The notes under the pieces are model-generated. The model was not told the DNA's origin and did not search any database. It saw nothing but the letters and a program-made list of their open reading frames with translations. The position numbers and the translations under genes are program-made. A DNA stretch of 63,943 bases, the filler included, from Folioceros fuciformis (Eukaryota): assembly GCA_049999805.1 (NCBI GenBank). It is 8 parts of 8 records of this genome, joined end to end, with 100 filler letters (N's around TTAATTAATTAA, not from the genome) between each part and the next. Parts side by side here need not be neighbours in the genome. Positions count along the whole stretch, not along the records: positions 13,393 to 23,970 come from JBNGIO010005307.1; 7 more parts are not named here. One strand, 5' to 3'. Shown here one piece after another: positions 766 to 57,956 of this stretch; position 1 is the first letter of the stretch, and every line of letters starts with the position of its first letter.

Positions 766-2697
766 TTACATCTTATTTAAGTGCTCGGCTTCCCTTAACT
801 GTATTTCGATGACTTTCTTAACATGGCTGATGTCCCAGCCTGTTTCTCCCCAGACCTTGGCAGCGTTGATGATGTTGCGAATCTCCCGGCCGTTGAACGG
901 ATGGCTTGCAAGCTCCGAGTAGTCGATGTCGCGGTCCGGGAACCCTACCTTGTTCAACATTTGCCTCCAGATCTGAGAACGCTGTTCTTCGTCTAGGGGA
1001 GGGTAGTATATGGACATGGTGATGCGGGAGCAGAAGGCAGCGTCGAAGCACTTGGCTCTGTTGGTGGTGAGGAACATGATGCCTGAGTAGTACTCGAGCT
1101 GGCGGAGGAAGATGCCAGTGGAAGCATTTGTGTGCGGAGAAGAGGTGGACGATCTGCTTTCCATGTAGACATCGGCTTCGTCCAAGAGGAGGATTGCTTG
1201 CCAGGTGTAGGACAACTCAAAGATGTTGAGAAGTCGTAGCTCCATGGCGATCGAGTCTGTGCTCGGCAGCTCGAAGGCGTTCACAGAGTAGAGCGGCCTG
1301 TGCAATTTCTCCGCAAGCCCCTCTGCTGTTAGGGTTTTGCCTCCCCCTGGAGGGCCATAGCACAAAATGATGAAGCCGCCACCCTTGTTGTCGATGTTGT
1401 CCACCTGCTGTACGCTCTGGATACCCACCTGCCGAACGCTCTGTTGGAACGTGCAATTGGTGGCAATTCTGAGGAGCATCTCCTTCTTCCCTTCCTCCAT
1501 CACCAGGTCTTCGAAGGGCTTGTCGGAGAAGACGATGTCGCGGAATCCGCACACATCAAAGCAACCCCACAGCTTGCGGGAGAGGGAGAACCCGTAGACG
1601 AAGGCTGGGGACTTCATGAGGCTCTCGGTGTCGGGCCTTGGAATCTTAGGACATGCGGCGGCTCCTCGAACCAGATCGCAGGGAGGCTCCGCGTACCCCA
1701 TGGGGTATCCTGGATTCATCCTGGCGAAGCTCTTGAGATCAACCATCACCCGGCCATCTCCCGGGATTTGTTCTCGTACCCAGCACCCTCCATCTAACCT
1801 CTTTTTGACTATTGAGCCCTTGTATTCCATGTAGACTGGCTGGCCTGCTTCTTTCAACATAAGCCTGTAGAACATCTCTCCCTGTTGCCGAAATCTCTCT
1901 TCCCTCTCCTTCCTGTCGGCGTCGTCGAGGTACTTCAAAGGAGCAACGTCCAATGATGAGAACGGCTGCTTATCGGTGTACTGCATTACATTTCTGCTCA
2001 CCGTGCATTCCTTGTAGCTTTGCAGATCGAAGTCCCGGACACGAATATAGATTTTGAACCACTTGGATCCTAGCTCCCCGTACTTCTTCTTCACCCGCAA
2101 GATGGTACCGGAAACATGCCGAGTTGTTAGCTCGCACTTGTAAGATACCACCTCACCGGGCGCAAGTACAGTCCAAAGGATGTCCCAGTTGATGCGCTTC
2201 TGCTCCAGCGCCTTCTGCAGCTGGAGAAGAGTGTTCTTATACTCCTCTTCCACGAACCGAACGAGGTGACTGAGATGGAGGTGGAGCTCCCCTGTTGCAG
2301 CTCTCAAAGACCGCTTCATTTCATCCCGAGCAAGGAAAAGAGTCTGCCCATCGATATCCGGCTCGTCATCAGTGTCCGCTGTAGTGTCCGGAATGAGCTT
2401 CGCCACAATGTCGATTAGACAGGGAGAGTACAGCGTGACAAAGACTCTCATATCGTCATCCCCACCATTTTCCTGAGTCACGATGAACGGTGCTCTCCAT
2501 GATGTCTCCTTGCGCTCCACAAGCCGTTTCCGGACTTTTCTGCCATTCCGCACTAGTGTCTCGTAGCGATCCCATTTCCAGTCCGGCGCTTCCAGAGCCG
2601 ACTGCAACGCGTTCAGCTTCTCTCGGTGGTCGTCGTTGTCTTCGTCGTCTTTTTCGTCGTCGTTGTCTTCGTCGTCTTCGTCGGACAATTTCTGCAA
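766..2697 (-). CDS. AAA+ ATPase, fungal-type family with long N-terminal domain; true 5' end uncertain
   Basis: Walker A GPPGGGKT, Walker B ILLLDEAD, sensor/SRH FLTTNR..FDAAFCSRI and lid FNGREIRNII. Upstream motifs are GRVMVD and VYGFSLSRKLW, plus an acidic N-terminal tract. The ORF starts at TTG next to a possible acceptor (ttgcag), so an upstream exon is likely. Confidence 0.9.
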   Translation of the reverse strand: MQKLSDEDDEDNDDEKDDEDNDDHREKLNALQSALEAPDWKWDRYETLVRNGRKVRKRLVERKETSWRAPFIVTQENGGDDDMRVFVTLYSPCLIDIVAKLIPDTTADTDDEPDIDGQTLFLARDEMKRSLRAATGELHLHLSHLVRFVEEEYKNTLLQLQKALEQKRINWDILWTVLAPGEVVSYKCELTTRHVSGTILRVKKKYGELGSKWFKIYIRVRDFDLQSYKECTVSRNVMQYTDKQPFSSLDVAPLKYLDDADRKEREERFRQQGEMFYRLMLKEAGQPVYMEYKGSIVKKRLDGGCWVREQIPGDGRVMVDLKSFARMNPGYPMGYAEPPCDLVRGAAACPKIPRPDTESLMKSPAFVYGFSLSRKLWGCFDVCGFRDIVFSDKPFEDLVMEEGKKEMLLRIATNCTFQQSVRQVGIQSVQQVDNIDNKGGGFIILCYGPPGGGKTLTAEGLAEKLHRPLYSVNAFELPSTDSIAMELRLLNIFELSYTWQAILLLDEADVYMESRSSTSSPHTNASTGIFLRQLEYYSGIMFLTTNRAKCFDAAFCSRITMSIYYPPLDEEQRSQIWRQMLNKVGFPDRDIDYSELASHPFNGREIRNIINAAKVWGETGWDISHVKKVIEIQLREAEHLNKM

Positions 2698-4241
2698 CAG
2701 CTGGCCAGTTACGCGGGTCCATCGCGATATCTCGTGTGCTACTTGTGTGAGGGCTGCTGCTCAAGCCACATGTACGACACCAGAAGAGACATCTAGGTGA
2801 GGTTAGATCAATTTGGTCACTACCGTTGTCAGTCAACTCGTAGACGACGTTGTGCAGTGCCCTGGATGTCATGTCAAGCAACACTAATCATCATCATCGG
2901 AACGTGTGAAATAGGCACCTTGAGATTGGGTTTGTAGCATATCTGGCGTTACGGAGTTGATGGTCCTGTCTCCCTAAAATAAAGCAAACGCTCGTTCAAA
3001 AAACCGTGTACTACATGTAGATGGAAGCCAGCAGGGGCACCAAAACCAGATACAAGAATGTTACCACCAACCTGGCTTCTTGAGCTACTTTCTCGGCCCC
3101 AAGAGATGTTCTTCAGTAGCTCGAAGGGGAGAAGGCCAAAGTTGCGTATCTTGCCTGCAACCGGGATCAGGCATAGCGAATTGGTAGGTTGAGACCTCCT
3201 TCTGTCACACATCAATTACTTGTAACGAATCAATTACAAGGTGAAAGTTGGGGATGAAGACATGTTTATTCATCACCTGATTTAACCAACCTTGTGAGTT
3301 GGGGTTGTCGAAGTTGGAAGAGCCCCCATGTTGTCAGCCACACGCTTGCCATCACCAGTGTTTGGAGCAGTCCCTTGGAAAACGTAAGCTCATACAGCAC
3401 GAGCACAATGGATCCAATAATAGCATACGATAGAAATGGCCAGTTCAGAGACGTAACGTTTTCTGTCACAATGCAGTAGACTCGACTTTGTAAGCAAGTT
3501 TGAATTTCATCAGTTCAGGGTTCAAGTACTACTCCACGTTGTCACCCGCCCACCCAGTTAGTTGCAACTAAACCCTAAAGCCGCAAACCGAGCCTACCTT
3601 GCTTCCATTTCAGAAGCAGAAGCATGGTCCTAGAAGTTGGCAAAACAGTTTACCGATGTCGCTCAAACGGATTGCCTCACTCCGGAAAAATGTTGGTTTT
3701 CTTGTTTCGCCAATAGGCACCGTTTTGGTAGCGTATATCCATATGTCCACTGCTACATCCGTGAGCGCGAGCTCAGAGGGTAGCATTGCAACTCCCCGCT
3801 CCACGCCTGCCACAATCTATGGGATGCAGCCCAAATCCATGCTCATCATCTTGAAAGAGACTCTCTGTCCGGGCTTATAAAAAATACACAGTGGTCACCA
3901 TGATTATGAATAATGACGATGGAGGCACCTCACCTCATGCTCGTCCCATGTCACATCTAATGCATGCTTTCGTTCAGCTGTTGCTGCATATACACAGACT
4001 GGCCCCTCGCCCTCGCCCTGCACTTTGAGATGTAATCCACATATACTTATCTTGTCTACAAGTGACATGCAACAACGAGGTGATTTTCACGTTCGGCCGC
4101 AAGTCAAAGCACTTCTTAACACATCAACAACAGCAAGAAAACAATCAAAAAAAAATTTGAACGCTACGCCTTAACGAATCTTACCAGAGGTAATACGAGT
4201 GCACATGACAAGAGTGGGAAGATTCTTCTCCATGAAACGCT

Positions 4242-5207
4242 CTAGTCGATTCGTACCTGGAACCTCAAACACCTACAACGATAAACAATCCCTCCATCTC
4301 TCCCATTCCATACAGTCAACGAAATTGAAGGTGTACAGTACAACGATTTCATACCTTGGTCAAAAACCCCCCAGTGCCCTAGCTGAATGGTGCAACTCTC
4401 AGACAAGTTGAGAGAAGCCAGGTTTTGAAGCAACCGGTGGAGTCTGCCAACCAATTCCCCTTTCTCAACCGAAATGCTGGTTTTGAAAATGTGGGATCCC
4501 GAAATTTCAATTACATGCTCGTTAGGCATGGCGTTCCTCAGCTGTTGCACCTCAGATTTCGAGAGATCTTTATCAACTACCACAATCATATCGATGTCCT
4601 CAACCGTGCTGACCGTGGCGCAATTCTTCGGTACATCATTTTCAGCCGCCCTCTCTTCAGTGCTCTCGCCATCGCAATCGATAGAGTCGTGAGGGGCACG
4701 AGGAAGCTTCCCCTTCCCACTCACACCATTCGAATCCGTTGGCCTTCGACCTCGATTCACAACAGATCCAGAGTCCGCAGTAGCTCCACTATCGGCCTCC
4801 GTCTGCATCTGCTTCTTCGCCTCCTCCTCCAGCCATTTATTTACACGATCTAGACAGGTTTGCTGCTCCGCCAGCTGTCGACGCGTCCTTTCCCGTTCCT
4901 CCTCCCCATCCCGTTTCAAATTCCGGCAGAGACACGCCTTAGCAACCAGTGCAACCAGTGCAACCAAACATTGCGATGCCAGGTTCAAAATCACCTGGCC
5001 AACCCATTGGCTAATTAGGAAGTTGTTCACCACCGCATATAGTGGTTCCTTGTTCACTACTCTCTCGGTCTCCGTGGATGGGGTCTCCATCGATGGACTC
5101 TCCTTGAGTACCTGTCTTCGAATTGAAGGGACTTCGCTCAAACCAAGTCGCCTGAAGTCCTTCCAATCGCCACACCCACAGCTGCCATCCGTCCAGGGTG
5201 CCTCCAC
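4242..5207 (-). CDS. Uncharacterised ORF with a hydrophobic segment and a coiled-coil; probably one exon of a spliced gene or pseudogene
   Basis: A 321-codon open frame (first ATG gives METPSTE...) with hydrophobic QVILNLASQCLVALVALVAKACL followed by an E/R/Q-rich helix. GT-AG-like signals lie near 4354 and 4180. No family recognised. Confidence 0.4.
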   Translation of the reverse strand: MEAPWTDGSCGCGDWKDFRRLGLSEVPSIRRQVLKESPSMETPSTETERVVNKEPLYAVVNNFLISQWVGQVILNLASQCLVALVALVAKACLCRNLKRDGEEERERTRRQLAEQQTCLDRVNKWLEEEAKKQMQTEADSGATADSGSVVNRGRRPTDSNGVSGKGKLPRAPHDSIDCDGESTEERAAENDVPKNCATVSTVEDIDMIVVVDKDLSKSEVQQLRNAMPNEHVIEISGSHIFKTSISVEKGELVGRLHRLLQNLASLNLSESCTIQLGHWGVFDQGMKSLYCTPSISLTVWNGRDGGIVYRCRCLRFQVRID

Positions 5208-5327
5208 CCTCTCCTCTTGCGATGTCTAAGGCGGTGTCCTCGCCGATTTCACTTTCAGGCGATTCATGATGGCGGGTGTTATCAACCAGAAGTGCGCACA
5301 CAGGCTGGAGTGTGACGCGATTGTTGA

Positions 5328-5870
5328 GGTTGAAGCTAAGCGACCGGGGCAGTTTCCTCCACCTTTCTTCTTCATTGACGCCGACCATATTGGGAAGAAC
5401 CAATTCAATAATCCGTTGTGGTCGGGAGTTCTACTTGTACAGTCCACCCTCCCTAAATGTTACCTGTTTGTTGGGAGTATGGCATTGGGTAACATTTACG
5501 GAGGTGTAACAATTAGAGAATTCAAGTATTTATTAAAAATAAATAAATAATTTATTTAATATTAAATATATCGCATAAATATTATAACGCCGACCATATT
5601 GGGAAGAACCAATTCAATAATCGGTTGTTGTCGGGAGTTCTACTTGTATGACCCCCGAGCAAACACGCGCCGAGTCTGACAACGTTGTCACAGGGCCCAC
5701 CACTATACAGTACAACGCGCAAGAATTCATCAAGCTTCTACACTCTTGTAGCTGAACTTAAAAGCGTAACAGGATTCTTGACGTTGAAGCTAAGCTATCG
5801 GGGCAGTTTCCTCGACCTTCATCATCCACCGTATTGTGAAGAACCAATTCAATAATCGGTTGTGGCAGGG
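5328..5870 (+). repeat. Three dispersed copies of a ~60-110 bp sequence
   Basis: The core gaagaaccaattcaataatc(c/g)gttgt occurs at ~5394, ~5603 and ~5838. The flank gttgaagctaagc...ggggcagtttcctc is shared by copies 1 and 3. Confidence 0.85.
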
Positions 5871-6924
5871 AATGTGGCATGCCAAAGAGCACGCATCACC
5901 TCTCTACATTAATACAAAAGAGAACACCCTACGTCTGGCTCCTTTTGGTGCGAGGACCAATCAAATCCTCTTCGTCAAGAGAAAAAATTGCTTACTTGCA
6001 GGGTGATTGAATAGATGCCCACAAACTCGGCCACACTCAACATTTCCCCTCCATTTCAGCCGTGCTTGGCACCATGAACTCCGCCGCACCGATCCATCTA
6101 CCTCCCCTCTGCACCAGCACGTACAGGCACGATGTGGTCATAGAGAATCCTCTGGAGATTGGTGTTGGAGCCCGGAAAAGCTTGGTCTTTCATAAACCCG
6201 AGGGGGAATTTGAGCTATTTTCCGACCTACAGAATGCAGAATGGCTATGCAGCATAAGGTTTGGTTACCACCACCACTCTTTCCCCACGCCCCCTCCCCG
6301 CTGATCTGTTCCGACACAAGGATGGTATACTCCGCTCCAAGCTCCCTGTCTCTCACTCCCCTTCCTCCCCCTTCGTTCCTTCCCCATCCCCGCGGTCCGA
6401 AGGCAACTCGGGCACACGTGCCAAACGTGTGAACATTCTCGACCTCCCGGACCACTGAAGTCACTAGGGGGTAAGGCCAGTTCGCCGGAAAGTCCTCCAC
6501 CCCGTCTCCCCCATACTTTCCTCCCACTCTGACTGGGACACGCAAGGTACCTGTGACTACAAACATGACTGGAAAAACATCTTCAAAGCCTTAGTGCTTG
6601 CAAGTGTGTTGGATATCCATAAAGGCATGTACTCTAAGCTCACACACATCCATGGTATGTGGCAATCAACTCACGTGACGTGACTTGATGTGGTGGTGAC
6701 GCGAACCTTCTAGGCTTTGTGTGGCAAGTGGTAAAATATCCCACATTGAAGAACTATCTAACAAGCACAGCATTTTGGTATAAAATGACCGGGATCTTCA
6801 ACTAGATTATTTGTTGAAGTAGGTTAGATGGTGAACAATGTACAGCAAGGCTAAGGGTGGCTTGGGTAGCCTATACCAACAATTTTAAGTAGGATGGAGG
6901 CATCCGGGTGTAGAATGAAGAGGC

Positions 6925-7541
6925 TTACCAATCAATCAAGTGGCCACATCAAAACATTTGCCCTACCAATCGAGAGGCCACATATCAAAACATTTGCCCT
7001 ACCAATCGAGAGGCCACATATCAAACATTTGCCCTACCAATGGAGAGGCCACATATCAAAACATGTGCCCTACAAATCGAGAGGCCACATGTCAAAACAT
7101 CTGCCCTACCACATCTCAAAACATCTGCCCTACCACATATCAAAACATCTGCCCTACCAATCGGGAGGCCACATCAAAACATTTGCCCTACCAATCGAGA
7201 GGCCAAATATCAAAACATCTGCCTTACCAAAACATCTACCCNNNNNNNNNNNNNNNNNNNNNNNNNNNNNNNNNNNNNNNNNNNNNNNNNNNNNNNNNNN
7301 NNNNNNNNNNNNNNNNNNNNNNNNNNNNNNNNNNNNNNNNNACCAATCGGGAGGTTACATATCAACACATTTGCCTTACCAATCGAGAGGCCACATCAAA
7401 ACATGTGCCCTACCAATAGAGAGGCCACATATCAAAACATCTGCCTTACCAAAACATCTACCCTACCAATCGAGAGGCCACATATCAACACATTTGCCTT
7501 ACCAATCAAGAGGCCACATATCAAAACATCTGCCTTACCAA
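6925..7541 (+). repeat. Minisatellite, ~36-bp unit (ccctaccaatcgagaggccacatatcaaaacatttg), with an internal N gap
   Basis: More than ten direct copies with 34-36 bp length variants; explains the repetitive ORFs in three frames. Confidence 0.95.
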
Positions 7542-7819
7542 TTGCAAGAAACAGGCATTGTATTTGTTGCGGAAGGCTATATTCTAAATGCTACAAATGT
7601 AGTAGCTTCTTAATCTTTGACAAGGTTGGATCCCTAAATGTAATAATTATAACATAAAATATATGTATAAAGAAGTAACATAGAAAGATGGAAAGGGCTC
7701 CCCTCATTATCCATGGGTTTCTTTCATCGTGTGCAAGGTAGGCAAACACGAGTCACGGTTGGTAGATCTTACTTGGAGCAATTTCAATATCCATTTTTAA
7801 TCATGTTTCCCCAAAATTG

Positions 7820-8068
7820 CACTCGCTAGACATCTCTGTTTTTAAACTAATCATGTATTTTTTTCAATTAAATAATAAAGAATTCATGGTGGTTGCCACC
7901 ATTTCCTATTCAATAAATTATTTTGTTTTTTTCTTTTAAAATACACTGGGCTCACTAGATATCTCTGTTTTTAAACTAATCATGTTTTTTCAATTAAATA
8001 ATAAAGAATTCACGGTGGTTGCCACCATTTACCTATTCAAAAAACTATTTTGTTTTTTTCTTTAAAAA
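7820..8068 (+). repeat. AT-rich direct duplication of ~130 bp
   Basis: atctctgtttttaaactaatcatg...aattaaataataaagaattca..gtggttgccaccattt occurs twice. Confidence 0.85.
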
Positions 8069-8149
8069 GTGCAGTAGTAAATCCACGCACTCACTTGACA
8101 ATAAACCCTAAACAAATATTGATTTTTGACTCATTGGTGTTTTAAAATA

Positions 8150-11100
8150 CAGAAGGCACTAGGCTACGACATCTTGCTGGGCAAGACTTGGCTGTATGGA
8201 TCGAGGTGCAGGCTGTCATGGGGAAGGAAGGAGGTGGCTTTCAAACCACTTGAATGGAACCCCAAGACAAAGGAGGGTAGGATTTGTTTGAGCTGGAGCC
8301 GGGATGTCTACCTCGTTGAGACCCCAACGGACGCGGAGGGGTACACGTCTGTGGGGGACACAACTGATTTGGAGGAGGGGGAAGGGGAAGATAAATTCCC
8401 TTTTCCCCACATATCATGGACAGATGAAGAGGAGGACTACCGAAGGGATATTCCTTATACCCTGAACCGGGTCGAGTGTTTCGGGATCACCTTGGACTGC
8501 AACATGGTAGGGGCTGAAGCAGCAAACATGGAAGGACAGGCTGCTAGAGTTGCTGAAGGGAAGGGCCAGGAAAAAGCCTCCCATGCCAAGAGGGGTGTGA
8601 AGGAAGGTGAGATGAGGAAAGGGGGCTGTGACCCAAGGTCTGAAGGGCCTGCTGGTGAGGATACAGAGGTCACTAGATTCACCTCTGAAGACCTATTCAG
8701 GGAATGGGGAATGAGGGAGAAAGATCCCCGAGAGACGGAAGAAGGGTTTGGAGTCAGCTCTGCACCCGTGCAGCGTGAATGGGTGCAGGCTGATGAAATT
8801 AAGGATGTAGAGGTGTTGCCGGGCAATGTGCTGAAGTTTTCCAAATAGCTGGATGCCAAATTGGAGGAGGGAATGAAGCAACTCCTGGCTGAGTTTATCG
8901 ATGTGTTTGCCTTTGAGGTGACAGACATGAAGGGAATTCCCAAAGAGTGGGGGGAGCACAAGATCGACTTGGAGCCAGGCGCTGTTCCCGTTCGAATTCC
9001 ACAATACAAGCTGAATCCAAAATACTCCATGAAGGTAAAGGAACAACTGGAGCAATACTTGAAGGCAGATGTGATTTTTCCAATTGTGAACTCAGATTGG
9101 GTGGCCCCAATCGTGGTGGTGCCCAAGAAACAGCAAGGGAAGATCCAAGTGTGCCAAGACTGGAGAAGGCTGAACAAAGCCACCAAGAAGGATCATTTCC
9201 CCTTGCCATTCATTGACAACATTTTGGATTTGGTGGCTGGCCGCATGATTTACTCCTTTTTGGATGGCTATTCTGGTTACAATCAGCCGTCCCTCAGGGA
9301 GAGTGACTGGCCATTGACAGCCTTCACAACTGATTGGGGGACATTCGCCTACAAGAGGAGTGCTTTTGGGCTGACAAGAGCACCGGGGTCCTTTATGCAC
9401 AGCATATACAAGATCTTCAAGGATTTCCTCCACAAGTTCCTAAAGGTGTTCATAGACGATTTTTGTGTGTCTGGAGGGGTGGAGCAGCATCTGGAGCACC
9501 TAAGGCTGTGCTTGGCCAGGTGCCGTGAGACGCAACTTTGTTTGCATCCAGAGAAATGCTATTTTGGCATGGCTGAAGGGATCTTGCTAGGTCACAGAAT
9601 TTCAGCAAGGGGCATTGAAGTGGACAAGGTGAAGGTGATTGCTACCTTGAGGGCCCCAGCCACACTGAAGGAGCTGCGTGGATTCCTTGGGATGGTGGGA
9701 TACTACCGCCGATTCGTGCCAAATTTTGCTAGACGGGCTGCACCTTTGACGGGCCTATTGAGGAAGGAGCAATCTTGGGAGTGGACAGCGGCGAGGGAGG
9801 CTGCATTTCAGGACTTGAGGACCACTCTTGTGATAGCACCAACACTCAAGGGGCTTGATTGGGACAAGAAATTCCATGTGTACGTGGATGTTTCAGCCTT
9901 TGCTATTGGGAAAGTCCTTAGCCAACGGGATGAGAAGGGGAGGGACTACCCAATCTACTATGCTGGACGTCAACTTACGGAGGCTGAACACAAGTACACC
10001 ACAATCGAGAGGGAGGCACTTGGCATGGTCTACTCTTGTCATAAATTCCGCCACTACCTCCTCTCCTATGAGTTTGTCTTCCATGTTGATCATTTTGCTC
10101 TCAAGCACCTGGTCAACAAGGCAGACCTATTGGGCCGCATAGCTCGCTGGATCTTGCTCTTGCAGGAGTTCACATTCATCGTGGAAACAGGGGAAGGGCG
10201 CAGGCATGTGAATGCTGATTTTCTATCCAGGCTGAAAATGAGGAATGTGGTTCAGGACCAAGAAGATGATTTTCCGGATGAGACATTTTCAGCAGACCTA
10301 GTGGAGAAGGAGAGGGCCAAACCAAATGTTAGGTTGCCAAGAGGTGAAGGTGCACCACCAAATGAGAAGGGGAGAAGAGGGTCCCGTAAGCCTTCCTACC
10401 AAGAGGTGTCTGATTTTTTAGGCACGGGGGAATTTCCAGTTGATCTCACATGGCAGCAGCAGCGGCTGTTCTTGTACTTCACAAGGCTGGTGGTTAAGTA
10501 CAAGGGCAAGCTGTATCGCACAGGAGCTGATGGCGTGGAGAGGTTGTGGGTCAAACCTGGCCAAGTGGAGCAAGTTATCAGCTCCCTACATGAGGGAGAG
10601 GCTGGAGGCCATTATGCAGCCCATGTGACCTGTAGAAAAATTTTGGCAGCAAGGTATTGGTGGCCAACAATGCATGCTGATGCTGGAGAATTCATCAAGA
10701 GGTGTGATGCATGCCAAAGGGTGGGGAAGCCTACTAGGACCACACAATGGCCATTGGTCCCCATCCTAGCCCTAGCACCATTTGAGAAGTGGGGGATTGA
10801 TTTTGTAGGACCAATTCAGCCCAAGTCTAAGGGAAGGCAGAACCAATACATCCTGGTGGCAACTGACTGCTGCACACGCATGGTGGAGGCCCAAGCTTTG
10901 CTAGTGGACACAGCAAATGTGGTGGCCCGATTTTTGTTTGAGCAAATCATCACAAGGTATGGGTGCCTGTTGGAGCTGGTAAGTGATAGGGGGACTCACT
11001 TCATCAATGAAATAGTCAAGCACATGACTGAATATTTCAATATCAGTCATAGGAAGACCACTCCCTACAACCCTAAGGCCAATGGACTCACGGAGAAGGC

Positions 11101-11647
11101 TAATGGGCTGTTGTGCGAGATTCTCGGCAAGCTCACCGTCACCTATGCTCATGATTGGGATAGGAAGCTCCATTCAACCTTGTGGGCGTATAGGACTACT
11201 GAGAAGGTTACTGCCCAGCAAACCCCTTATTACCTCACCTCTGGACACTCATCGATCATGCCCATCGTATTTGAGGTACCTACCTTGAGAATGCAGGAGA
11301 GCAATCGATTGCCCGTGGAGGAGAGCCAGCTAGAGAGGCTAACCAGTTTTGTGCAGCATGATGAGAATAGGGAACGGGCCTTGGCTGTTTTCCTTGATGT
11401 TCAGGAGAGGAGGAAGAAGTGGCACGACCAGAAGTTGCGTAAACAAGAATATGTTGTGCCTGGAGATTTAGCCTTGTTATATGACAATAGGTACATGCAC
11501 TTTCCAGGTAAGCTGCACTTGAGATGGATGGGACCTTACAAGATGCTGGAAGTGTATGAGAATGGGTCCATCCAACTGCAGCACCATAACAGCCCTAACT
11601 TGCCAACTAGGGTTAATGGCTGGCGGGTGAAGAAATATTATCAGTAG
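8150..11647 (+). mobile_element. Ty3/Gypsy non-chromovirus pol (protease C-terminus, RT, RNase H, integrase); 5' truncated, one in-frame stop
   Basis: Protease end YDILLGKTWL; RT FLDGYSGYNQ and FIDD; RH VYVDVS and EREAL; INT HHCC (H-x6-H...CDAC), WGIDFVGP, SDRG, GLTE; ends RVNGWRVKKY with no chromodomain. TAG at 8846-8848 replaces the Tyr seen in the related copy (SKYL). Confidence 0.95.
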
Positions 11648-12867
11648 TTGGCGAGGACGCCAACAAATGAGAAGGGGAGTATGTGGACTCCACATGCTGA
11701 ATAGGTCCTTGGAAAATGGTAGGATTTCTCTTTTTGGGAATCTCTAAGTGAACCCTGTGGTGAAATGGTTAAAAGATTAGGTTAGATTAATAGCTAGATT
11801 AATGGTGAGGTGAGACGCGTCCTTGAAGGGTTGCTGAAATGATCTGAGAGAAGGGATGGAATGATTTGAGAGAGGAGGGAGAGTGTTGAGAGGCACTGAC
11901 CATTTTGGTAGTCTTGAGAGGTTGGTCAATTTTGGTAAGGGCACCCAGTGGTGTCCATGGGACACAACCCCTATTAGGTCAGAACTAGGTTTGGGTTAAA
12001 GTTAGGGTTAGGTCAGAGTAAGGTTTAGGTCAGAATTAGGGGTGGCTTAGGTCAGAGAGAGATTGCTGGGTGGTTGACTGAGGCTAACCCTAATAGATAG
12101 AGATGGAGGTTTGGGCCAAGGTAGTATAAGAGGCTAGACCTGCCATTGAGGAGGGGGCTGTCTACGGTGCGATTTCCCTGGACCTTGGGTGCAGAACTCT
12201 TGGCTTAGGGCGCTGAGCTGGTTGAGACTAAACTAAGGTCCTGATTTCCCTTGCCACTAGGGGAACGTGGAGGATCCCAAGACTGCCAAGATTCTTGTGG
12301 CCGGATCCGCAATGGCTAACCACCTTGCATGGTAGCTGAGGTGAGGTTGCAGGGCCATGAGCCAAGGAGGCTACCCAGCCCTAGGCCTCGCCTTTGCCTT
12401 GAAGGCTGCAAGAGGGAAGGCTGTTGTGTTCCAAATTGCAGGAGAGAAGGGTTGAGTTGCAGATTTTGGAACTGTTGAAGTGAGGAGTTGAGCTGAAGTG
12501 AGGGGCTGGAGGGTGAACTGAAGTGCTGAAGTGAAGGACTGAAATGCTGGGGTGAAGTACTGAAGTGGTGGAATGAAGTGTTGAAGCTGGAGTGAGGAGC
12601 TAGCTGAAGTTGAGGTTCTCGTTCAACTGCGGAGGTAGCTAGCACTAGGTGCTGAGAGTTGGAGGCCAGACTTGGGCTGGAGCCTCCTCTCAGCACTGAA
12701 GTGATTGATACTTGGAGCTGGAAACGAGGGCTGAAGACAATGCTGGAGTTCTCATTTTGTTGAGGCTGGGGTTGGTGTTGTGGTAGGAGCCGAAGATAGG
12801 ACCGAGAATTCTGATCTATTGCTGTAGCAGTTGGTATATGCTGATAGATAGGGTGAGATTAGGGGGA

Positions 12868-12983
12868 TGTAGGTAATATTGACATTAGTTCACTCCCTTG
12901 GGAGCGAATCATAAGACTACAACGATTATAAAGGGAAGTGTGGCCCCTTGGTGGTTCTTGGGTGTGCAAGAAATCACCCCACA
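12868..12983 (+). mobile_element. Short Gypsy LTR (~116 bp) flanked by a PPT and a PBS
   Basis: Purine tract AGGGGGA directly precedes TGTAGG; the element ends CCCACA; an internal TATAAA is present. Confidence 0.65.
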
Positions 12984-12986
12984 TTT

Positions 12987-13004
12987 TGGCGCCGTTGCCG
13001 GGGA
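12987..13004 (+). promoter_or_regulatory. Primer binding site (Athila/Tat-type, tRNA-Asp-like)
   Basis: TGGCGCCGTTGCCGGGGA located 3 nt after the LTR-terminal CA, followed by an ATG ORF at 13081 that runs into the gap. Confidence 0.85.
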
Positions 13005-13292
13005 GTGACATTGCTGTCAAGGTTTGGAGAGGACTGACCTAGATAGGGGACTGTACGAGGGAATGTGGCAGGGTTGATGGATGCCCTGCATAGGAGCTGA
13101 AGATTTCAACTCTAGCTTTGAAGGGGGAGCTCAAGCTCAAGTAAGGAGGCAGCAGCAAGTATTGGAGCGTGAGCAAAGAGCAGTGGAGAGGGAGCTAAGG
13201 AGGGCACAGCCAGGGCATACACTAAAGAGGAGGAGGAGAGGGGCTAGCAACCAGCAGATCTTGGGGGAATCAATCACGTTGGAACAAGACCC

Positions 13293-13392
13293 NNNNNNNN
13301 NNNNNNNNNNNNNNNNNNNNNNNNNNNNNNNNNNNNTTAATTAATTAANNNNNNNNNNNNNNNNNNNNNNNNNNNNNNNNNNNNNNNNNNNN
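13293..13392. other. Artificial contig linker N44-TTAATTAATTAA-N44 (also at 23971, 30489, 40210, 48819, 57857 and 62224)
   Basis: An identical 100-bp construct with a 12-mer giving stops in all six frames recurs seven times. Confidence 0.97.
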
Positions 13393-14132
13393 CTCCTTAG
13401 GTTGTTCCTCCAATCTTTGGCGTGCTCATTGAACTTTGGCCCTCCTTAGGTTGTTCCTCCAATCTTTGGCGTGCTCATTGGACTTTGGCCCTCCTTAGGT
13501 TGTTCCTCCAATCTTTGGCGTGCTCATTGAACTCTGGCCCTCCTTAGGTTGTTCCTCCAATCTTTGGTGTGCTCATTGAACTTTGGCCCTCCTTAGGTTG
13601 TTCCTCCAATCTTTGGCCCTGCTTGGGTTATTGCTCCAATTTTTGGCCCTGCTCGGATTGGTCCTCCAATCTTTGGCCTTGTTCGGGCTGTTCCTCCAAT
13701 CTTTGGCCCTGCTCCTTGCTCAGGTTGGTCCACCCCTGCTCCTTGTTCAGGTTGGTCCTCCAATCTTTTGGCCTTGCTTGGGTTGTTCCTCCAATCTTTA
13801 GCTCTGCTCGGGTTGTTGCTCCAATCTTTCTCCTTGCTCAGGTTGGTCCTCCAATCTTTTGGCCTTGCTCGGGTTGTTCCTCCAATCTTTGGCCGTGTTT
13901 TGGATCTTCCTCTAATCTTTGGCCCTAGTTAGGTTGTTCCTCCAATCTTTGGCCCTGGTTAGGTTGTTCCTCCAGTCTTTGGCCCTGGTTAGGTTGTTCC
14001 TCCAGTCTTTAGCCCTTGTTGGGTTCTTCCTCCAATCTTTAGTCCTTGTTGGGTTCTTCCTCCAATCTTTAGCCCTTGTTGGGTTCTTCCTCCAATCTTT
14101 GGGCCTGCTTGGGTTTTTCCTCCAATCTTTGG
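13393..14132 (+). repeat. Composite minisatellite: 49-bp unit x4 grading into a ~30-bp unit array
   Basis: Shared core ggttgttcctccaatctttggc. The period is 49 bp at 13393-13590 and ~30 bp thereafter. Confidence 0.93.
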
Positions 14133-14841
14133 AGTAGATGGAACTTTCCATCTCTTTATCAATAATAAAAAATACTATCTTAAATTTGATAATAATAAAA
14201 CTAAATAATAGCAAACATCTCTCCTCTCTTGGCAAAGCTCCTACTCTTGGCACCCCCATTATGGTTTTCCTTCCTTCACATATAAATGGTTTTCCTTCCT
14301 TCACCCATCTATAGGTTTTTTTTGTGGTGCATCATATATGGATTTTTTTTGTGGTGCATCATATATGGAGAACGAGGTGATCCTTCTAGATCTTGGTGCC
14401 GTTGGTTTGATAGTAGCTCAACTTGGATAGTTGGTAATGACATATTAAAGCCCACATTGTGTTCTCCTCACGGGAGGAATCACCATGCTCTCTATCACAC
14501 TTTCCGCAACCGACACAAGGTCACACAAATTACGGCAACGATCCTACTGAGGATAATAAGCAAACTGTACAGACCCATCGAGGGTAGAACCGCATTGCGC
14601 GTATCACGACTCAAATCCTCATCGGCTCGTTCGGATTGGGAATAAGCAGCGTCGCAGTATAAACCTGTGGGTGATAACGTACGCCAGATATGCTTTAAAA
14701 TAGCAGTGGATTTATCATGAAGCCTACTGAGCTTGCAAGGTGGTCAGTAGGTTGGTGTTCCACGGCCAGCCCGACTGGCCGGAGCGACATTCCTCTGATT
14801 CCCGCTCCAGGCCCCATTCCTTGCCTGATTGGCTGAGGCGG

Positions 14842-15171
14842 ATGGCCGAGGGCCAAGATTTTGTGCGCGGTCGTCGCATCTACTGCTGCAACTGCCGCAG
14901 ACATATCGCGGACCACGACGACTGCGTGTCGAAAACTTTCAGTGGGCGAAATGGGAGGGCATTTCTGTTCACAAGCGTGACGAATGTTATGGTCGGGGAG
15001 AGGCGCGACCGGCAGCTCTTGACGGGCATGTTCACTGTCGCTGACGTCTCCTGTATAGGTTGCAAGAATACTCTGGGTTGGAAGTATGAGAGGGCCTTCG
15101 AGGATTCGGAGAAGTACAAGGAGGGCAAGTTCGTTCTGGAGAAGTCTGAAGTTATGGAAGAGGAAGTCTAG
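14842..15171 (+). CDS. Yippee-like (YPEL) zinc-binding protein, 109 aa, intronless
   Basis: Two CxxC motifs (CCNC, CIGC), SKTFSGRNGRAFLF, LLTGMFTVADVSC, GWKYERA and the KYKEGK signature. ATG at 14842. Confidence 0.93.
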   Translation: MAEGQDFVRGRRIYCCNCRRHIADHDDCVSKTFSGRNGRAFLFTSVTNVMVGERRDRQLLTGMFTVADVSCIGCKNTLGWKYERAFEDSEKYKEGKFVLEKSEVMEEEV

Positions 15172-16474
15172 TGACAGCAGCCAGTGGTGCTGGTGTTCTG
15201 TCTTGTACAGATGGAGGCTGAAGGAGCCAGTCTATCATGTGTATGTGCGTGGCACGATCTCTCACCCTCGGAGCTATCGTTGTGCAGGAGATGCCTTCGT
15301 AGTGGGGATGGATTATCTGGGAAGCAGCTTGTTGTGTAAAGCATCCCCTTAGACCACAGTTTGTTCTTTGCATGGCATGCCTGGTACGAAATTTCAGGAG
15401 ACAGCAACACCGCACAGTGCTTTCTCCACGTAGCAGCTTTACAGCGGGCACTCAGTCCGAAGAGGTCGGTTGGTGAGCCTCACAGGTTCGTGACGATTTT
15501 TTTTCGGTTGTTTTTTGGCATATCTTCCTCCAATTGGGATTGAGATAGTTATGTCTTTCCACCACCACCTGGGTGAGGTCAGGATTAGGATCGTCTACTT
15601 CTCTTTTCGTGCAGCGAGTTGTGCTTCGAGCTCTCACGAGCTAGCCCTAGATGATCGTCGGGTTGCCAGGAGATTGGTTGGCGTCCCTGGAACTACCGTT
15701 CCAACTGGGAGGGAGATGCAGGCAGGGTTATTGATGGCTTGGCCACAACGTGACCTTACCTGCAATCGGGCTGCACCAAGAGAACTCTTGTTCTGCATGC
15801 ATGCACAAAATGAGCCGCAATATGACAGGCGCTGGACTCACAGATTGTGGAAGAGCACTGCATGCTCCTGCCCTCCCTCCCTCTCTTCGTTGCCCGCTCT
15901 AAGAAACTTCAGAGGTATCAAGCGGCTAACCTGGTGGATGCATCCAGCGTCTCGGGTGATCATTTGGACCACTTCAGCCCTTGGAACTGAACAACAAGGA
16001 CCTGTCTGGACTCCTTCCTGCAGTCCAAATTAGTACAGTACTGAGAGTCTAGAAACCTTCAGCTGCTTGCCGTGCCAGAAAAGTTGGGAACCCCAGGATC
16101 CGACTGCAGCAGAGTGAGTGACTGCAAATCTTGCGGGAGGTCGGAAAAGCCTTATACTGTACGATGTACCTGACCCTTCAGCGCAGAGAGCCCGATCCCA
16201 ACTATTAGGGTTTGAGTGCACCACGGCCACGATCCTCTGACCGCACTGAATGAGGCAGACCTGTGGAAAACAGCCCGCCATTGGTTTCCGCTGCTCATGC
16301 CGGATCGATGAGATGGCGAAGCAGATCGCCGCGACCTCTCCCCCACGCACAGCGAGAGCCGAAGCGGCGGGATCCGCGAGCTCACGGGGAGCACCAATCG
16401 CGGCAGGGGACGCTTGGTTTTTCTTTAAAGGCACGAAACCTTTCTCCCCTCGCTGCCGGCGCTGGTGAGCGAGG

Positions 16475-16672
16475 ATGGACGTGGCGACGGCGCACCCCCA
16501 TGTGGTGCACCACAGGCGCAGGCGGCGGCGGAAGGGCCACGCGATCCGCCACCGTCACCGCCGCAGGAAGGGCCATGGCCGCAAGCGCCGCCGCAGACGT
16601 CGCCGCCATAAGCACAAGAAGCACGGTCGCAGACGGCGCCGCCGCCGCCGTCGCAAACACCGCAAGCAGTAG
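16475..16672 (+). CDS. Protamine-like Arg/His-rich small basic protein (65 aa)
   Basis: ATG to TAG; 29 Arg, 12 His and 8 Lys; Arg runs of 6, 7 and 9 encoded by mixed AGG/CGC/CGG/AGA/CGT codons. Confidence 0.7.
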   Translation: MDVATAHPHVVHHRRRRRRKGHAIRHRHRRRKGHGRKRRRRRRRHKHKKHGRRRRRRRRRKHRKQ

Positions 16673-18413
16673 CCTGCTTGCCATGCGGCTTGGTGCTCGC
16701 TCTCCATCCCAAACTGAAATTCCGTTGGATGCGAGCCACATCCCGAGTCCCTGGACAGCGAAGCAGTTACCATTACATAACACTGAATGACAGAGTGCGC
16801 GCTCAATGCTCAACAAAAAAGTGGCCGGCAGAACAGCGTCAAGTGAATCCCAACTCACACGCGATGAAGCGGCCGGCTCCCCATCTCCCTTGCCGCCCGC
16901 ACATACATGCAAGGCGCCTTGTTAGCGTGGAAAAAATGCTTTGCACAGACGACAATCCCTGGAAGCAAGCGTCATGTTGTTGTTGTTGTGTTGTTGCACG
17001 CCATCCACATTGCGCTCTGGCGCTGTATAATACCAAGAGACTGAACCTGTTGTTGCCTGAATCAAAAATCAAATTTGAGTCCAATTCCCCAACTGATTCT
17101 CTTGCCAGCTTCCATTCCTCGCACGATCATATTGAATCCTTCTTGCCCAATCCACGACTGAATCAACACATTCTCCTGGAACGTTACCTCTCTCACTCAT
17201 GTCGTGCCCTATTGCAACGCATTTCAAACTTCTCTGTTTGTTTCCTTCACATCCCCACCATCTCGTCCAGTTTTGACATCTCGTTTGCGTGTGTACACAT
17301 GACGTTGCCCCCCTCCCCGTCCTCTACATAGTGCTCGGTTTTGTCTACAAACGTAACCAGTTCCCATCGTTTTTTCTCAAAATTGAGTATCTATGGAGTT
17401 TTTCTGAAGGTTTGTGGCGTCGTGTTTCTCATGGCGGAGGAAGAGGGAGGGAAAGAGCGGCGTGCTGTGACGCTCAGATTCAAGGGGAGTCATGGCCGCA
17501 AGGTGAGGGGGGTGGAGAAAATTGAAGTCGATCAGCTCGAGGAGGGAACTATTGAGGTTTGACGATGAGAAGGTCACAAACACGGCAGGCCGCACCTGTT
17601 GCCAAGGTAAGCTTGAATCTGCCGGTTGCGTGGTACTTCAAGGAGATGATCAAGAACCGGCTGGTGTAGCTGGAACTGACGGTAGAGGGGCACGGAGGTC
17701 ACATTCGAGACGTCAACCCTCCTGTCAGGCCGGCAACATGAAATTTTGCAGTATCGGTTGAATTCGAGGAATGGTGACACAGCCCCTTTCCCGGAAAGAT
17801 GCGGAGGTATCGCGAAAGTTCTGGCAAAAGATCTGGCACGAGGCTTTCTTGGAGCAGTAAGAAAGCATCCTGGCAGAGGATTGGAGAGGCATTGCTGCGG
17901 GGGGTGNNNNNNNNNNNNNNNNNNNNNNNNNNNNNNNNNNNNNNNNNNNNNNNNNNNNNNNNNNNNNNNNNNNNNNNNNNNNNNNNNNNNNNNNNNNNNN
18001 NNNNNNGTGGGGTGGAAGAAGGGCAAGCCGATAGGAGGGAGATGCAAGAACGCGGTGGCACCTTCTGAAGCACGCGCATCCACGAGGGTCATGGGTGAAG
18101 CCCATGTGTCTGGACCTCGTCAAGACATCTAATAGGTAGGCACGGTAAGCGACAGCCTACTTCCTGCAACCTCCTTTTTGTGTGTACCATTTTTCGTTTT
18201 CAATGGACCGTATGGCATAGAGTGATTGCTATCCTGCCTACCGTCACGCTTAGAGACAGCATTTTGTTTCAGTCAAAACTTTTGAAGGCCGCATGAATTC
18301 ACGCGACACTCATATCCCCTACAAGGCAGGCATTAACTGGTGACAAACTCAGATGTCCCACTACCCTTTTTCCTACGTTCTCGGCACGGGCCGTTTCAGC
18401 CCTCTGCTTGAAC

Positions 18414-20519
18414 CTACAGTTGGTTTTGCTCTCCAACCAGAAAACTATGCACAACTCCATCATTATCAGTCCACCAGCTCTCGCCCGGTAGCTTCCATGC
18501 CTTAATTCCTAGTCTCCTTGCCTGCATCTCAGCAGCTTGCTCCCACATCTGGACACAGATGTATATATTCGACATAGTTACATATGCTGTCGCGTCTTTC
18601 TCATCAAGCTTCACTGCCTCATCGAAAGCAAACCTTCCCACCTCCACGTTCTTCCACTTTCGACAAGCACCCAACAGGTTGTGCCAAAGTGCAGAGTTGG
18701 GTGTTACAGGCAACGTCCTTGCCAACACTAGAGCTTCATTCAGTCGACCTGCCCGTCCAAGGAGATCGACCATGCACGTGTAGTGCTCTACCGTGGGAGA
18801 AATGCCGTAGACTTTGCTCATAACCTCAAAGTATTCCTTCCCCTTGTTCACTAGGCCCGCATGACTGCATACTGCTAGGACACTGAGAAAGGTGACCCCA
18901 ACCGGCTGTATGCCATCCTCCAGCATCTCTTGGACTAAATCAAAGACCTCTTCACTGTCCCCTTGGCAACTGTAACCTGCTATCAACGCACTCCAGGCAA
19001 CAACATCTCTTTCCAGCATTGCATCAAACACCTGCTGTGCATCCACCACACTCCCAGCCTTCCCATACATGTTTATCAAACTGCCAGCTACAAACACGTC
19101 AGTTTGAAGGCCTTGTTGTTCAATTCGTGCATGTAGCAGTCTTCCTTGATGCAAAGCTGCCACATTTGCACATGCCTGCAGAAGATAAACAAAGGTCACA
19201 CAATCAGGTGAAGCGATCCCTTCTAATTCCATTGCATGATAAAGATTAAGGGCTTTTTGACCCATGCTATGCTGGGAGTAGCCTGCTATTAAGGCATTCC
19301 AAGTCACGACATCCTTTTGAGCAAGTCCGTCAAACACTCTATGAGCATCCTCTAGACTCCCACACTTTGAGTACATATTAACCAAACTGTTAGCTACAAA
19401 CCCATCATCTTGATGCCCTCGTTCTTTAATTCGAGTGTGAAGCTCCTTCCCAATCTCCAAAGCCGGAGTCCCCACACATGCGCATGCCTGCAGAAGGCAC
19501 AGAAAAGTCACAGAGTCGGGTACAGAGATGTCATCATCTTGCATAGCACTATAGAGGCGGAGAGCTTCCAAGCCCATGCCCTGCTGGGAATACCCGGCAA
19601 TCATGGCATTCCACGTCACAGCATCTTTCCTATCAAGTCCGTCAAACACTCCTTGGGCTTCCTCTAAGTTGCCACACTTTGCATACATGTCCACCAAGCA
19701 GCTGCAGACAAACACATCAGGCTCAGTCCCACTGGCCATCACATCGGCATGCACAAGCTGCCCAGCTTTCAAATCCAATCCCCTCGTACAGGCTTGAAGG
19801 GCTGCGACGTAGACATGACCATCTGGCTGTACACTTGATCTGCGCATCCTGCGATAAAATTGTAAAGCCTGCTTGTCTTGCCCGTATTTAACATGGGCTG
19901 AAATGAGGGAGGACCACATGAAGGCATCTGGTTTCGCAACCGCGTCAAATACATCTATCGCGTCTTGCAACCTGCCATGAGAAGCATACATTCGCAGGAT
20001 GTGGTTGCCCAAGAAGGTGTCCGACTCGTATCCCCCTTTCACCGTCAAGGCATGAACTAGGCGACCTAACATTAGATCTTTTCGGACTACACATTTCTTT
20101 AAGACAACATAAATGAGATCTTTGGCAATACAAGAGTTTGTCTGCACGAGAATCCCCAAGGCCTCGACAGCCTGAGTGAGCAGGCCCTGATCACATAACC
20201 AGCTTACGGTTTCAGGCATGTCAGAATCACTCGCCAGGCTCCAGGCCGCATCCAGCAAGGCTGTCTTCGAGGAGTCGATATTGCACGAAAGCCCTGGATG
20301 CCGATCCAATTGTCGCCGAACAAGCTCTTGCGAGCGACATGCCGCACGTACAACCACACACTCTCTGGAACTGGCTAGGGATCTTGCTGAGCTAATGAAC
20401 CACCTCGATTGGTATGGTTGGTCGCCTGGATTCAGGTGAGCCGAACCCTTTCCTCCTAGGCCACCTGTTAACCCACCGCTTAGGCTGGTCCACGAAAATT
20501 GACCGCTCCAGACACTCAT
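18414..20519 (-). CDS. PLS-class PPR protein with E1/E2 and truncated WW-type DYW start (organellar RNA editing factor)
   Basis: P-L-S triplets (LVDMYAKCG, VTWNAMIAGY, TFLCLLQAC), HYTCMVDLLGRAG, and C-terminal KLPGESWWTD..VVHSFLVG. Intronless; first ATG at 20519; transit-peptide-like N-terminus. Confidence 0.96.
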   Translation of the reverse strand: MSVWSGQFSWTSLSGGLTGGLGGKGSAHLNPGDQPYQSRWFISSARSLASSRECVVVRAACRSQELVRRQLDRHPGLSCNIDSSKTALLDAAWSLASDSDMPETVSWLCDQGLLTQAVEALGILVQTNSCIAKDLIYVVLKKCVVRKDLMLGRLVHALTVKGGYESDTFLGNHILRMYASHGRLQDAIDVFDAVAKPDAFMWSSLISAHVKYGQDKQALQFYRRMRRSSVQPDGHVYVAALQACTRGLDLKAGQLVHADVMASGTEPDVFVCSCLVDMYAKCGNLEEAQGVFDGLDRKDAVTWNAMIAGYSQQGMGLEALRLYSAMQDDDISVPDSVTFLCLLQACACVGTPALEIGKELHTRIKERGHQDDGFVANSLVNMYSKCGSLEDAHRVFDGLAQKDVVTWNALIAGYSQHSMGQKALNLYHAMELEGIASPDCVTFVYLLQACANVAALHQGRLLHARIEQQGLQTDVFVAGSLINMYGKAGSVVDAQQVFDAMLERDVVAWSALIAGYSCQGDSEEVFDLVQEMLEDGIQPVGVTFLSVLAVCSHAGLVNKGKEYFEVMSKVYGISPTVEHYTCMVDLLGRAGRLNEALVLARTLPVTPNSALWHNLLGACRKWKNVEVGRFAFDEAVKLDEKDATAYVTMSNIYICVQMWEQAAEMQARRLGIKAWKLPGESWWTDNDGVVHSFLVGEQNQL

Positions 20520-21798
20520 AGCTAAGCTCTTAACATGCACAGACCGACTCCCTAGAGCCCTTCAGCAGGCATGAGATTTTGTCAAGATTTCACTATTCAT
20601 CCGAAACTACACAGATCTGTCTAGTATCTTCATGAGAGCCCGGAAGAACTCGTCATCCAGGTCATTGCAGCTAAGTATTCCGAAGTCGCGCCCTTGACAA
20701 GGCGGTGCTTAGAAGGCGTGCACCACTCGACATGGGACACTACGGTGGAGAAGACTTGAAGCCTGCTGACCCTGCCCAGCTGAAGACTTAATTCCGGAAT
20801 AGGGTTTTCCATAACTGTCCGGAATGTCTTGTGCAGCTGCACAAGGCAGTCAGGAAAGAAGTCTCCACCTACAACAGGGCCCATACTTCAAGCACCGTCT
20901 ACTCACAGCAAGCAGCGACGGCATGAGATCCGGGACAGGCTGAACGAGCTGAAAGTACTTGGCTGGGACGGCTTGGATGACGAGCAGTTCAAGGCCCTCG
21001 TGGGATCACTTGTCACGAAGATGAATCATTGCGGACTACTAGACCAGGAAGCACACCATGGCAGCTTACACAGGAACCACATTTGAAGTACGGGTCACCG
21101 TCTGAAGGACCACGCAGCACTGTGGACGGAGATTTCGGGCACTTCCGTACGGGCCATTCTATGGAGCAAAGATGGCCTAGAGCTTCCCTTTCAAAGAACA
21201 CAGTCCGCACAGCTCGCACGACCACTTCTATCCTCACCAGGCTGCTCACCTGTCAGCCCATGATAATAAGAAATAGTGTGTCCAACAAGGCAACAACGTA
21301 TGTATGTATGCACGCGTATCATGAAACAGCCAGCCGCGTAGCCAGACGCAGAGAAGTGCTCCGTGACAAGCGCTAAGCCGAGCCTCTTGGACCGCCGAGC
21401 CTCTTAGAGCCGCCGAGCTCTTCGCAAAATCCCCAGAGAGCTGTTGCAATATACAGAGAGTCGACAGGCGACAAATCAGTTACATGCAGCGTCATGTAGA
21501 CTATAGCTACCAATCTAGGATACGGGAATATCAACCCGCAAGTAAGAAAAATAATCCTTCACAAGCGCACCGTGCAGGATGGAGAACCAGAGGCAACGAT
21601 AATGCCAACCATGGCCTATTATCTTTCCCAAGAACAACATCCAGTACATGTCGTGAACGGTCTACGAGGTGCCAGATGAAGAATGCAAGAAAACCAAGTA
21701 TCAGAGCTCCAGCGATGCTGCTAAGACCAAAACGCCGAAGCCTACAGCTAACATGAAGGCTTCGGCACAGCCAAAATAAATCCTGAAGGGGGCAGGAG

Positions 21799-57856: not shown

Positions 57857-57956
57857 NNNNNNNNNNNNNNNNNNNNNNNNNNNNNNNNNNNNNNNNNNNN
57901 TTAATTAATTAANNNNNNNNNNNNNNNNNNNNNNNNNNNNNNNNNNNNNNNNNNNN

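Follow-up and report, generated by a model that had tools for sequence, protein, structure and literature searches.

The locus and its setting

The window (the whole stretch of DNA that was analysed, 63,943 nucleotides including filler, from the Folioceros fuciformis assembly GCA_049999805.1) is land-plant nuclear DNA. Among its contents are three long PPR frames that carry E, E+ or DYW motifs, as well as Ty3-type and copia-type retroelement frames. The PPR frame at 57905-60649 (+), which is interrupted by masked runs of N, carries an E motif and a DYW deaminase domain (1.5e-35) and ends in ...CSCKGRP. In the available excerpts of one study, hornworts are described as having two variants of the DYW:KP domain (the U-to-C editing type), GRP among them, and DYW:KP as restricted to hornworts, lycophytes and ferns (PMC9478123). 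The GRP-ending PPR protein would therefore fit a lineage that is very probably seed-free and likely a hornwort. The locus of interest is a short open reading frame (ORF) encoding a strongly basic product, here called P0001, which lies downstream of a zinc-binding protein gene.

14842-15171 (+): intronless gene for a Yippee/Mis18-type zinc-binding protein of 109 residues (PF03226, 5.9e-14)
16466-16468 (+): in-frame TGA, closing the frame three codons before the ATG
16475-16672 (+): coding sequence of the polycationic protein P0001, with ATG at 16475, 65 codons and TAG at 16670-16672
16475-16513 (+): non-basic 13-residue leader, MDVATAHPHVVHH, from the translation
16514-16669 (+): basic body of 52 residues, from the translation and residue counts

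Owing to the TGA at 16466-16468, the frame of the ORF cannot extend further upstream without splicing.

Evidence for a putative transcript

A contig of 622 letters from a run of the same organism (2017, guessed to be RNA) is identical to 16469-17090, with 0 other letters, 0 gaps and no loose end, and spans the region from six bases before the ATG to 418 past the stop. Since it is colinear through the ORF without a gap, the ORF is intronless there, in agreement with what had been proposed when the sequence was first read. The RNA status of this run is a guess, no listed run that holds the locus being recorded as RNA, and its contigs carry no strand information. The following features were drawn from the contig and from its upstream flank.

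16394-16429 (+): possible core-promoter boxes, CCAAT at 16394-16398 and TTTAAA at 16424-16429, as consensus matches only
16469-17090 (presumed +): putative minimal transcript, from the identical 622-letter contig
16673-17090 (+): putative 3' untranslated region, from the contig, with AATCAA 31 and 24 bases before the contig end

Together, CCAAT and TTTAAA would fit a possible start site near 16455. The guessed-RNA run comprises 48.6 million contig letters, compared to 289.9 million in a DNA run of the same organism, and it also has two contigs over the Yippee gene (14765-14967 and 14996-15422), a gene that lay outside the search query. Depth in the guessed-RNA run is 13.3 on the ORF contig and 3.7-4.3 on the Yippee contigs, with 6.7-10.4 in the DNA run, values that are not fit for ranking. 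If the run with the 622-letter contig is RNA, the ORF locus is transcribed, which we regard as quite probable. The guessed-RNA run has no contig on 14500-14764, 15423-16468 and 17091-17700, where the DNA run continues, and the guessed-RNA run of a related species has no contig on the ORF; both results were counted neither for nor against transcription.

The ATG of the ORF is the first + strand ATG of the contig, at position 7, and stands in the context GCGAGGATGG, with A at -3 and G at +4. Read from its - strand, the contig has seven ATGs ahead of the sole closed rival ORF.

Composition and build of the predicted protein

The sequence-only reading had described an ORF with a true ATG and stop, 45% Arg and 75% Arg+His+Lys, and translation and residue counts reproduce these figures exactly. 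P0001 contains 29 Arg in 65 residues (44.6%), 12 His and 8 Lys, and 49 of the 65 (75.4%) are one of these three. Its mass is 8.6 kDa and its net charge approximately +36 (29 Arg plus 8 Lys minus 1 Asp, His uncounted), and no acidic residue occurs beyond position 2. The Arg residues are encoded by five of the six possible codons (CGC 17, CGG 4, CGT 3, AGG 3 and AGA 2), so that the earlier count of five, including AGA and AGG, was correct.

Within the body, Arg tracts of 6, 3, 7 and 9 residues are separated by K/G/H spacers, and RRRKGH occurs twice. The non-Arg residues of the body are 8 H, 8 K, 4 G and one each of A, I and Q; a residue count found no Cys, Ser, Pro or Leu in the 52 residues, and Thr and Tyr are likewise absent. 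From CGC, the codons TGC, AGC, CCC, CTC and CAC are each one step away, and Lys codons two or three. A body with Lys and His and without Cys, Ser, Pro or Leu therefore favours selection on the peptide over the decay of a CGC repeat. When all stop-to-stop frames of at least 40 amino acids on both strands of the window were compared by their best 40-residue stretch, the ORF had 37 basic residues and the runners-up 19, 18 and 18, one of these three being the ORF's own antisense shadow. The composition of the ORF exceeds chance.

Repeat content and base composition

Tandem Repeats Finder gave one weak 12-base array only, of 2.4 copies at 16578-16606, and for this reason the ORF is not a plain (CGC)n microsatellite. 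A repeat or transposon origin was considered and rejected, because 16000-17400 has no second copy within the window and the 12-base array is weak. CGC nonetheless accounts for 17 of 29 Arg codons in the ORF, whereas five further reading frames taken from the window use it for 24 of 153, and this over-use implies that triplet slippage probably contributed to the Arg tracts. The bias fits a repeat-driven origin and so counts against our best explanation, a protein-coding gene. The sequence-only reading had argued from the codon variety against simple (CGC)n slippage; its rejection of a plain repeat holds, with slippage as a probable contributor.

A local CpG island spans the ORF plus its upstream flank, 16201-16800, where the observed/expected ratio of CpG is 1.04-1.10 compared to 0.50-0.75 over 15001-16200. 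This contrast counts in favour of the proposed gene. The locus could also be read as a non-coding GC- and CpG-rich island with triplet periodicity, acting as a promoter, an enhancer or a non-coding RNA, in which the Arg frame is open by composition and the likeness seen in a relative reflects shared repeat structure. Such a reading, which we regard as rather improbable, would account for the over-use of CGC, for the weak 12-base repeat and for the fact that five of the six frames (every + frame and two on the - strand) stay open across 16254-16921, and the guessed RNA status of the contig's run leaves it room. It does not explain the eight Lys codons and the missing Cys, Ser, Pro and Leu, which argue for peptide selection, nor does it predict a first ATG in strong context with a stop closing the frame just upstream.

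Conservation in a related species

A DNA contig of 3,406 letters from a related species aligns to three blocks that keep their order, 16330-16381, 16552-16661 and 17036-17066. The two outer blocks could be regulatory.

16330-16381 (no strand assigned): kept block lying 94-145 bases upstream of the ATG and differing by 1 other letter and 7 gap letters, a candidate for a promoter element or one of the 5' leader
17036-17066 (no strand assigned): 3' kept block, candidate 3'-end or regulatory element, 31 bases with 1 difference, just before the 3' end of the 622-letter contig

Between the kept blocks there is no alignment at 85%, the related species having 151 letters compared to 170 in the first interval and 273 compared to 374 in the second, and codons 1-26, start codon included, fall within the first of these unaligned intervals. 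The second interval also bears on the idea that the Arg ORF is a uORF or leader of a 200-residue ORF at 16729-17331, which was rejected: the difference of 101 letters is not a multiple of three, the 622-letter contig stops at 17090, inside the longer ORF, and the longer ORF has no Pfam family.

The middle block, 16552-16661, differs by 16 other letters and by one 3-letter insertion, its sole indel, in which CGT at a codon boundary adds one Arg in the related species. The test of coding conservation covers one species pair and 110 bases, and its codon analysis took in 8 of the 16 differences, those away from the ends of the piece. On these 8 of 16 differences, which hit 7 codons, the six reading frames behave as follows.

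ORF frame (+): 6 of 7 changed codons synonymous (CGC>AGA, CGT>CGC, CGC>CGT, CAT>CAC, AAG>AAA, GGT>GGC), the seventh being Arg>Gly
Antisense Arg/Leu/Cys frame (-): 5 of 7 synonymous, with R>L and R>P non-synonymous
Ala-rich frames (one +, one -): 1 of 7 synonymous in each
Remaining two frames: 0 of 7 synonymous in each

The ORF frame thus shows an excess of synonymous change between species, for one pair and for 8 of the 16 differences, and the conservation of the frame in a relative, on which the sequence-only reading had staked its proposal, is borne out to this extent. In a simulation of 20,000 random draws of 8 substitutions within 16583-16633, no more than one non-synonymous codon in the ORF frame was obtained at a frequency of 0.0003, 0.00025 and 0.00045 for transition biases of 1, 2 and 4, respectively. 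Frequencies of 0.00025-0.00045 speak against a non-coding island, as do the three synonymous changes in the non-repetitive H-K-H-K-K-H-G segment and the CGC>AGA replacement, which preserves Arg through two changes. A point in favour of the island is the tendency of aligners to shift mismatches onto third positions where the sequence is CGN-periodic.

The same alignment weighs heavily against an Ala-rich gene product, either from a 119-residue ORF at 16382-16741 (-) or from a 160-residue ORF at 16308-16790 (+). Both frames are long and open, and the one on the - strand resembles a hydrophobic Ala-rich segment. Each was rejected as the gene, with a single synonymous codon among the 7 changed; neither has a Pfam match or is found in the protein collection searched, and the ORF on the - strand runs off the contig at 16469. 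We consider an Ala-rich gene extremely improbable, and in particular the antisense Ala-rich ORF, raised at the outset as the possible true frame, is not the conserved one (8 of 16 differences).

The strand is a finer matter. The transcript could come from the - strand, with the coding frame being the 72-residue Arg/Leu/Cys ORF at 16555-16773 (-) and the + ORF its shadow. Its 5 synonymous codons of 7 are a result that the same simulation gave (no more than two non-synonymous codons) at a frequency of 0.016-0.032, the contigs are strandless, and in the non-repetitive part, 16607-16627, this frame has 3 of 3 changes synonymous at wobble positions common to the ORF, so that the substitution pattern alone cannot fix the strand. 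Nevertheless, it has two non-synonymous changes compared to one in the + frame, seven ATGs lie upstream of its start in the contig, and its N-terminal half (16662-16773) fails to align with the relative at 85%. Its Pfam search was empty, and we know of no counterpart to such a R/L/C/F/W peptide. An antisense gene is thus very unlikely. The + strand was chosen for the ORF because of one non-synonymous change rather than two, the double change CGC>AGA, the place of its ATG as the first in the contig and a product that is plausible, and from these we infer that the ORF is transcribed from the + strand.

The contig of the related species also has a second Arg-rich stretch, which matches 16637-16654 in the opposite orientation. 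The 30 letters ahead of this match read, in its frame, K S H K K G R R R R, where the Arg codons AGA AGA CGT CGC differ from those of the ORF, and six further Arg follow. By its sequence, the related species seems to carry two convergent copies about 1-1.4 kb apart, which suggests a small, locally duplicated gene family in that species. The window itself has one copy only of the Arg-rich ORF. In addition, a DNA contig of 328 letters from the same organism copies 16461-16526 (66 letters) with 5 differences and then diverges on both sides. The copied part begins 14 bases upstream of the ATG and takes in codons 1-17, and its continuation is unlike the ORF and non-basic. This near copy indicates that the leader is also present elsewhere in the genome; the 328-letter contig may represent a paralogue whose body differs, a chimeric fragment or the source from which the leader came.

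Searches for relatives and families

Homology searches were uniformly empty. A search of Pfam-A (hmmscan, E up to 1) returned 0 families for P0001 and for four rival ORFs, so that P0001 belongs to none of the Pfam protamine families (P1, PF00260; P2, PF00841; and others). For P0001, phmmer returned 0 PDB chains (E up to 10) and 0 matches over 1.84 billion representatives, and the ESM Atlas held no usable match. Among protein relatives of similar length, 2,416 candidates gave 0 at E<=0.01; among longer proteins, 8,000 scored candidates likewise gave 0 at E<=0.01. Rfam returned 0 for the whole window, and scans of metagenomes returned 0 both for the degenerate pattern H-K-H-K-K-H-G-R5 and for a 24-base piece of the 3' kept block. 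An exact look-up in a collection of 15 billion sequences found neither P0001 nor either of the Ala-rich ORFs, which means that P0001 is unannotated there.

The lack of any relative, family or annotated protein in the databases searched is a further point for a non-coding island. Such searches are, however, nearly blind to low-complexity proteins, and their empty results do not prove that P0001 stands alone. The suggestion, made with the first reading, of a convergent origin is in the same position: it fits the absence of sequence relatives, but proteins of this composition would be nearly invisible to the methods used. Overall, we consider that 16475-16672 (+) is probably a real, unannotated, lineage-restricted, small and intronless protein-coding gene.

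Comparison with sperm nuclear basic proteins

Animal true protamines (salmine-type in fish, P1 and P2 in mammals) have approximately 30-100 residues, are roughly half Arg in spaced tracts and have no fold. Among cellular proteins, a foldless protein of 8.6 kDa with 45% Arg and Arg tracts of 6-9 residues is typical of protamines. P0001 resembles animal true protamines in its size, in its roughly half Arg content in spaced tracts and in having no fold, and mammalian P2 also in its richness in His and in an N-terminal leader that might be removable. Its Arg tracts with K/G/H spacers, the absence of late acidic residues and the absence of a fold amount to a protamine build, and its small size, Arg-rich tracts and lack of a Pfam domain place it, on build, within the protamine type (P-type) as operationally defined. 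Unlike animal protamines, P0001 gives no Pfam match (E up to 1) and its body has no Cys, Ser, Thr or Tyr. Many animal protamines are phosphorylated at Ser or Thr, and a body with neither counts against the protamine reading. Since P0001 comes from a plant lineage, any likeness to animal protamines would be convergent.

Hornworts, lycophytes and ferns have flagellated sperm with condensed nuclei. Going by the title of a 2019 paper by D'Ippolito and colleagues, which PMC12849711 cites, liverwort protamines are reportedly cut from male-specific H1 histones. P0001 differs from such products of H1 precursors in that its 65 residues are directly encoded in a stop-closed frame with no linker-histone domain. 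P0001 likewise falls outside the H1-related (PL) type, as in Marchantia: stops bound its frame upstream and downstream, and Pfam recognises no domain in it, with the search among longer proteins adding weak evidence.

In the literature of this field, as far as the available portions of the sources go, plant sperm nuclear basic proteins are described as little known (PMC12849711; PMC6290024), bryophyte sperm as mainly of the protamine-like type and fern sperm as having both protamine and histone types (PMC12849711). Protamine-type proteins have been described in ferns and charalean algae (PMC12849711, available portion, citing Reynolds and Wolfe 1984 and Ausio 2024); these also belong to the seed-free green lineage with flagellated sperm, and, being known as proteins, they can be set beside P0001 by description only. 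At the gene level, the same portions of PMC12849711 and PMC6290024 name only the protamine-like gene of Marchantia. This gene had been invoked in the sequence-only reading, and rightly so: MpPRM is an arginine-rich, protamine-like nuclear protein that depends on DUO1 and is presumed to act in chromatin compaction (PMC6290024, in excerpt). MpPRM of Marchantia polymorpha and P0001 are both arginine-rich and both come from plants with flagellated sperm, a likeness by description and not by sequence comparison. In the portions available of the literature searched, no sperm nuclear basic protein, or gene for one, was described for hornworts, and one article mentions protamine and names no hornwort gene (PMC12851517).

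Regulation offers a difference from Marchantia. The DUO1 site is given as RRCSGTT, and sperm genes of Marchantia are reported to depend on DUO1 (PMC6290024, in excerpt). The window has 23 RRCSGTT sites where chance alone would give 35.4, and the stretch from 2529 to 18388 is free of them, hence none lies upstream of the ORF, which sets the P0001 gene apart from MpPRM as a DUO1-dependent gene. The absence of the upstream motif is weak evidence against DUO1 control of the ORF, and a motif this short and degenerate is weak evidence either way.

Proposed function and its main alternative

We propose that P0001 is a sperm nuclear basic protein of the protamine type. The whole statement, that is, a real gene together with this predicted role, is a live possibility that falls only a little short of being probable. 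Translation of the ORF and every step in sperm would run as follows. P0001 would be made late, in spermatids of a plant with flagellated sperm, and its 13-residue leader MDVATAHPHVVHH may be cleaved off and is possibly missing from the mature protein. The Arg tracts would bind DNA and neutralise its backbone, and in this manner P0001 could evict histones and compact the flagellated sperm's nucleus. The His residues could add cross-linking that depends on metal or pH.

The same gene, read from the + strand and encoding the same polycation, might serve another job outside the male germ line, for instance as a nucleolar or ribosome-associated RNA chaperone, as a general binder of chromatin or nucleic acids, or as a small regulatory peptide. 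The evidence for the gene is silent on tissue, the guessed-RNA run having no tissue label, and the DUO1 motif is absent upstream of the ORF. Short, very basic proteins occur outside sperm too, such as ribosomal protein L41, which lends support to another job. On the other hand, the Arg-tract build is typical of protamines; housekeeping basic proteins are widely conserved, so that relatives would be expected and none were found; and the multi-copy status and the change in tract length between close species fit fast-evolving reproductive genes. We therefore hold a role outside the male germ line to be unlikely, though well worth keeping in view.

More specifically, a His-rich, directly encoded true protamine could pack hornwort sperm DNA and belong to a small, fast-evolving, multi-copy family that arose independently, probably through growth of Arg-codon tracts, and is related neither to the H1-derived liverwort protamines nor to those of animals. 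This fuller version is put forward tentatively and is somewhat doubtful. Should it hold, the protamine solution would have been invented independently a third time, unseen by standard annotation. If the sperm role is true, P0001 would add a new variant, evolved independently, to a known kind of protein. The P0001 gene provides a concrete candidate, with which the number of protamine origins in the green lineage would become directly testable. It also exposes a blind spot in annotation, as P0001 is absent from the 15-billion-sequence collection and its composition makes it invisible to HMMER-based searches.

Other features of the window

Several further observations were made in the window. Downstream of the ORF, 17404-17689 is approximately 86% kept in the related species, both in a DNA contig and in a 1,131-letter contig of a guessed-RNA run, apart from an unlike middle of 100 letters. 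No obvious ORF occurs in this stretch, which could form a gene of its own or the distal 3' end of the PPR gene at 18414-20561 (-). At 14000-14130 lies a tandem array with 4.4 copies of a 30-base unit, and repeated peptide-like units (…HISKHLPYQSRG…) occur in three frames at 6870-7650; both regions are probably satellite-like repeats. Finally, 766-2760 (-) is an open frame of 664 residues in which GPPGGGKT forms a Walker A motif of the AAA-type ATPase kind. It also has an acidic stretch, and an off-frame of this stretch is the second most basic segment of the window.
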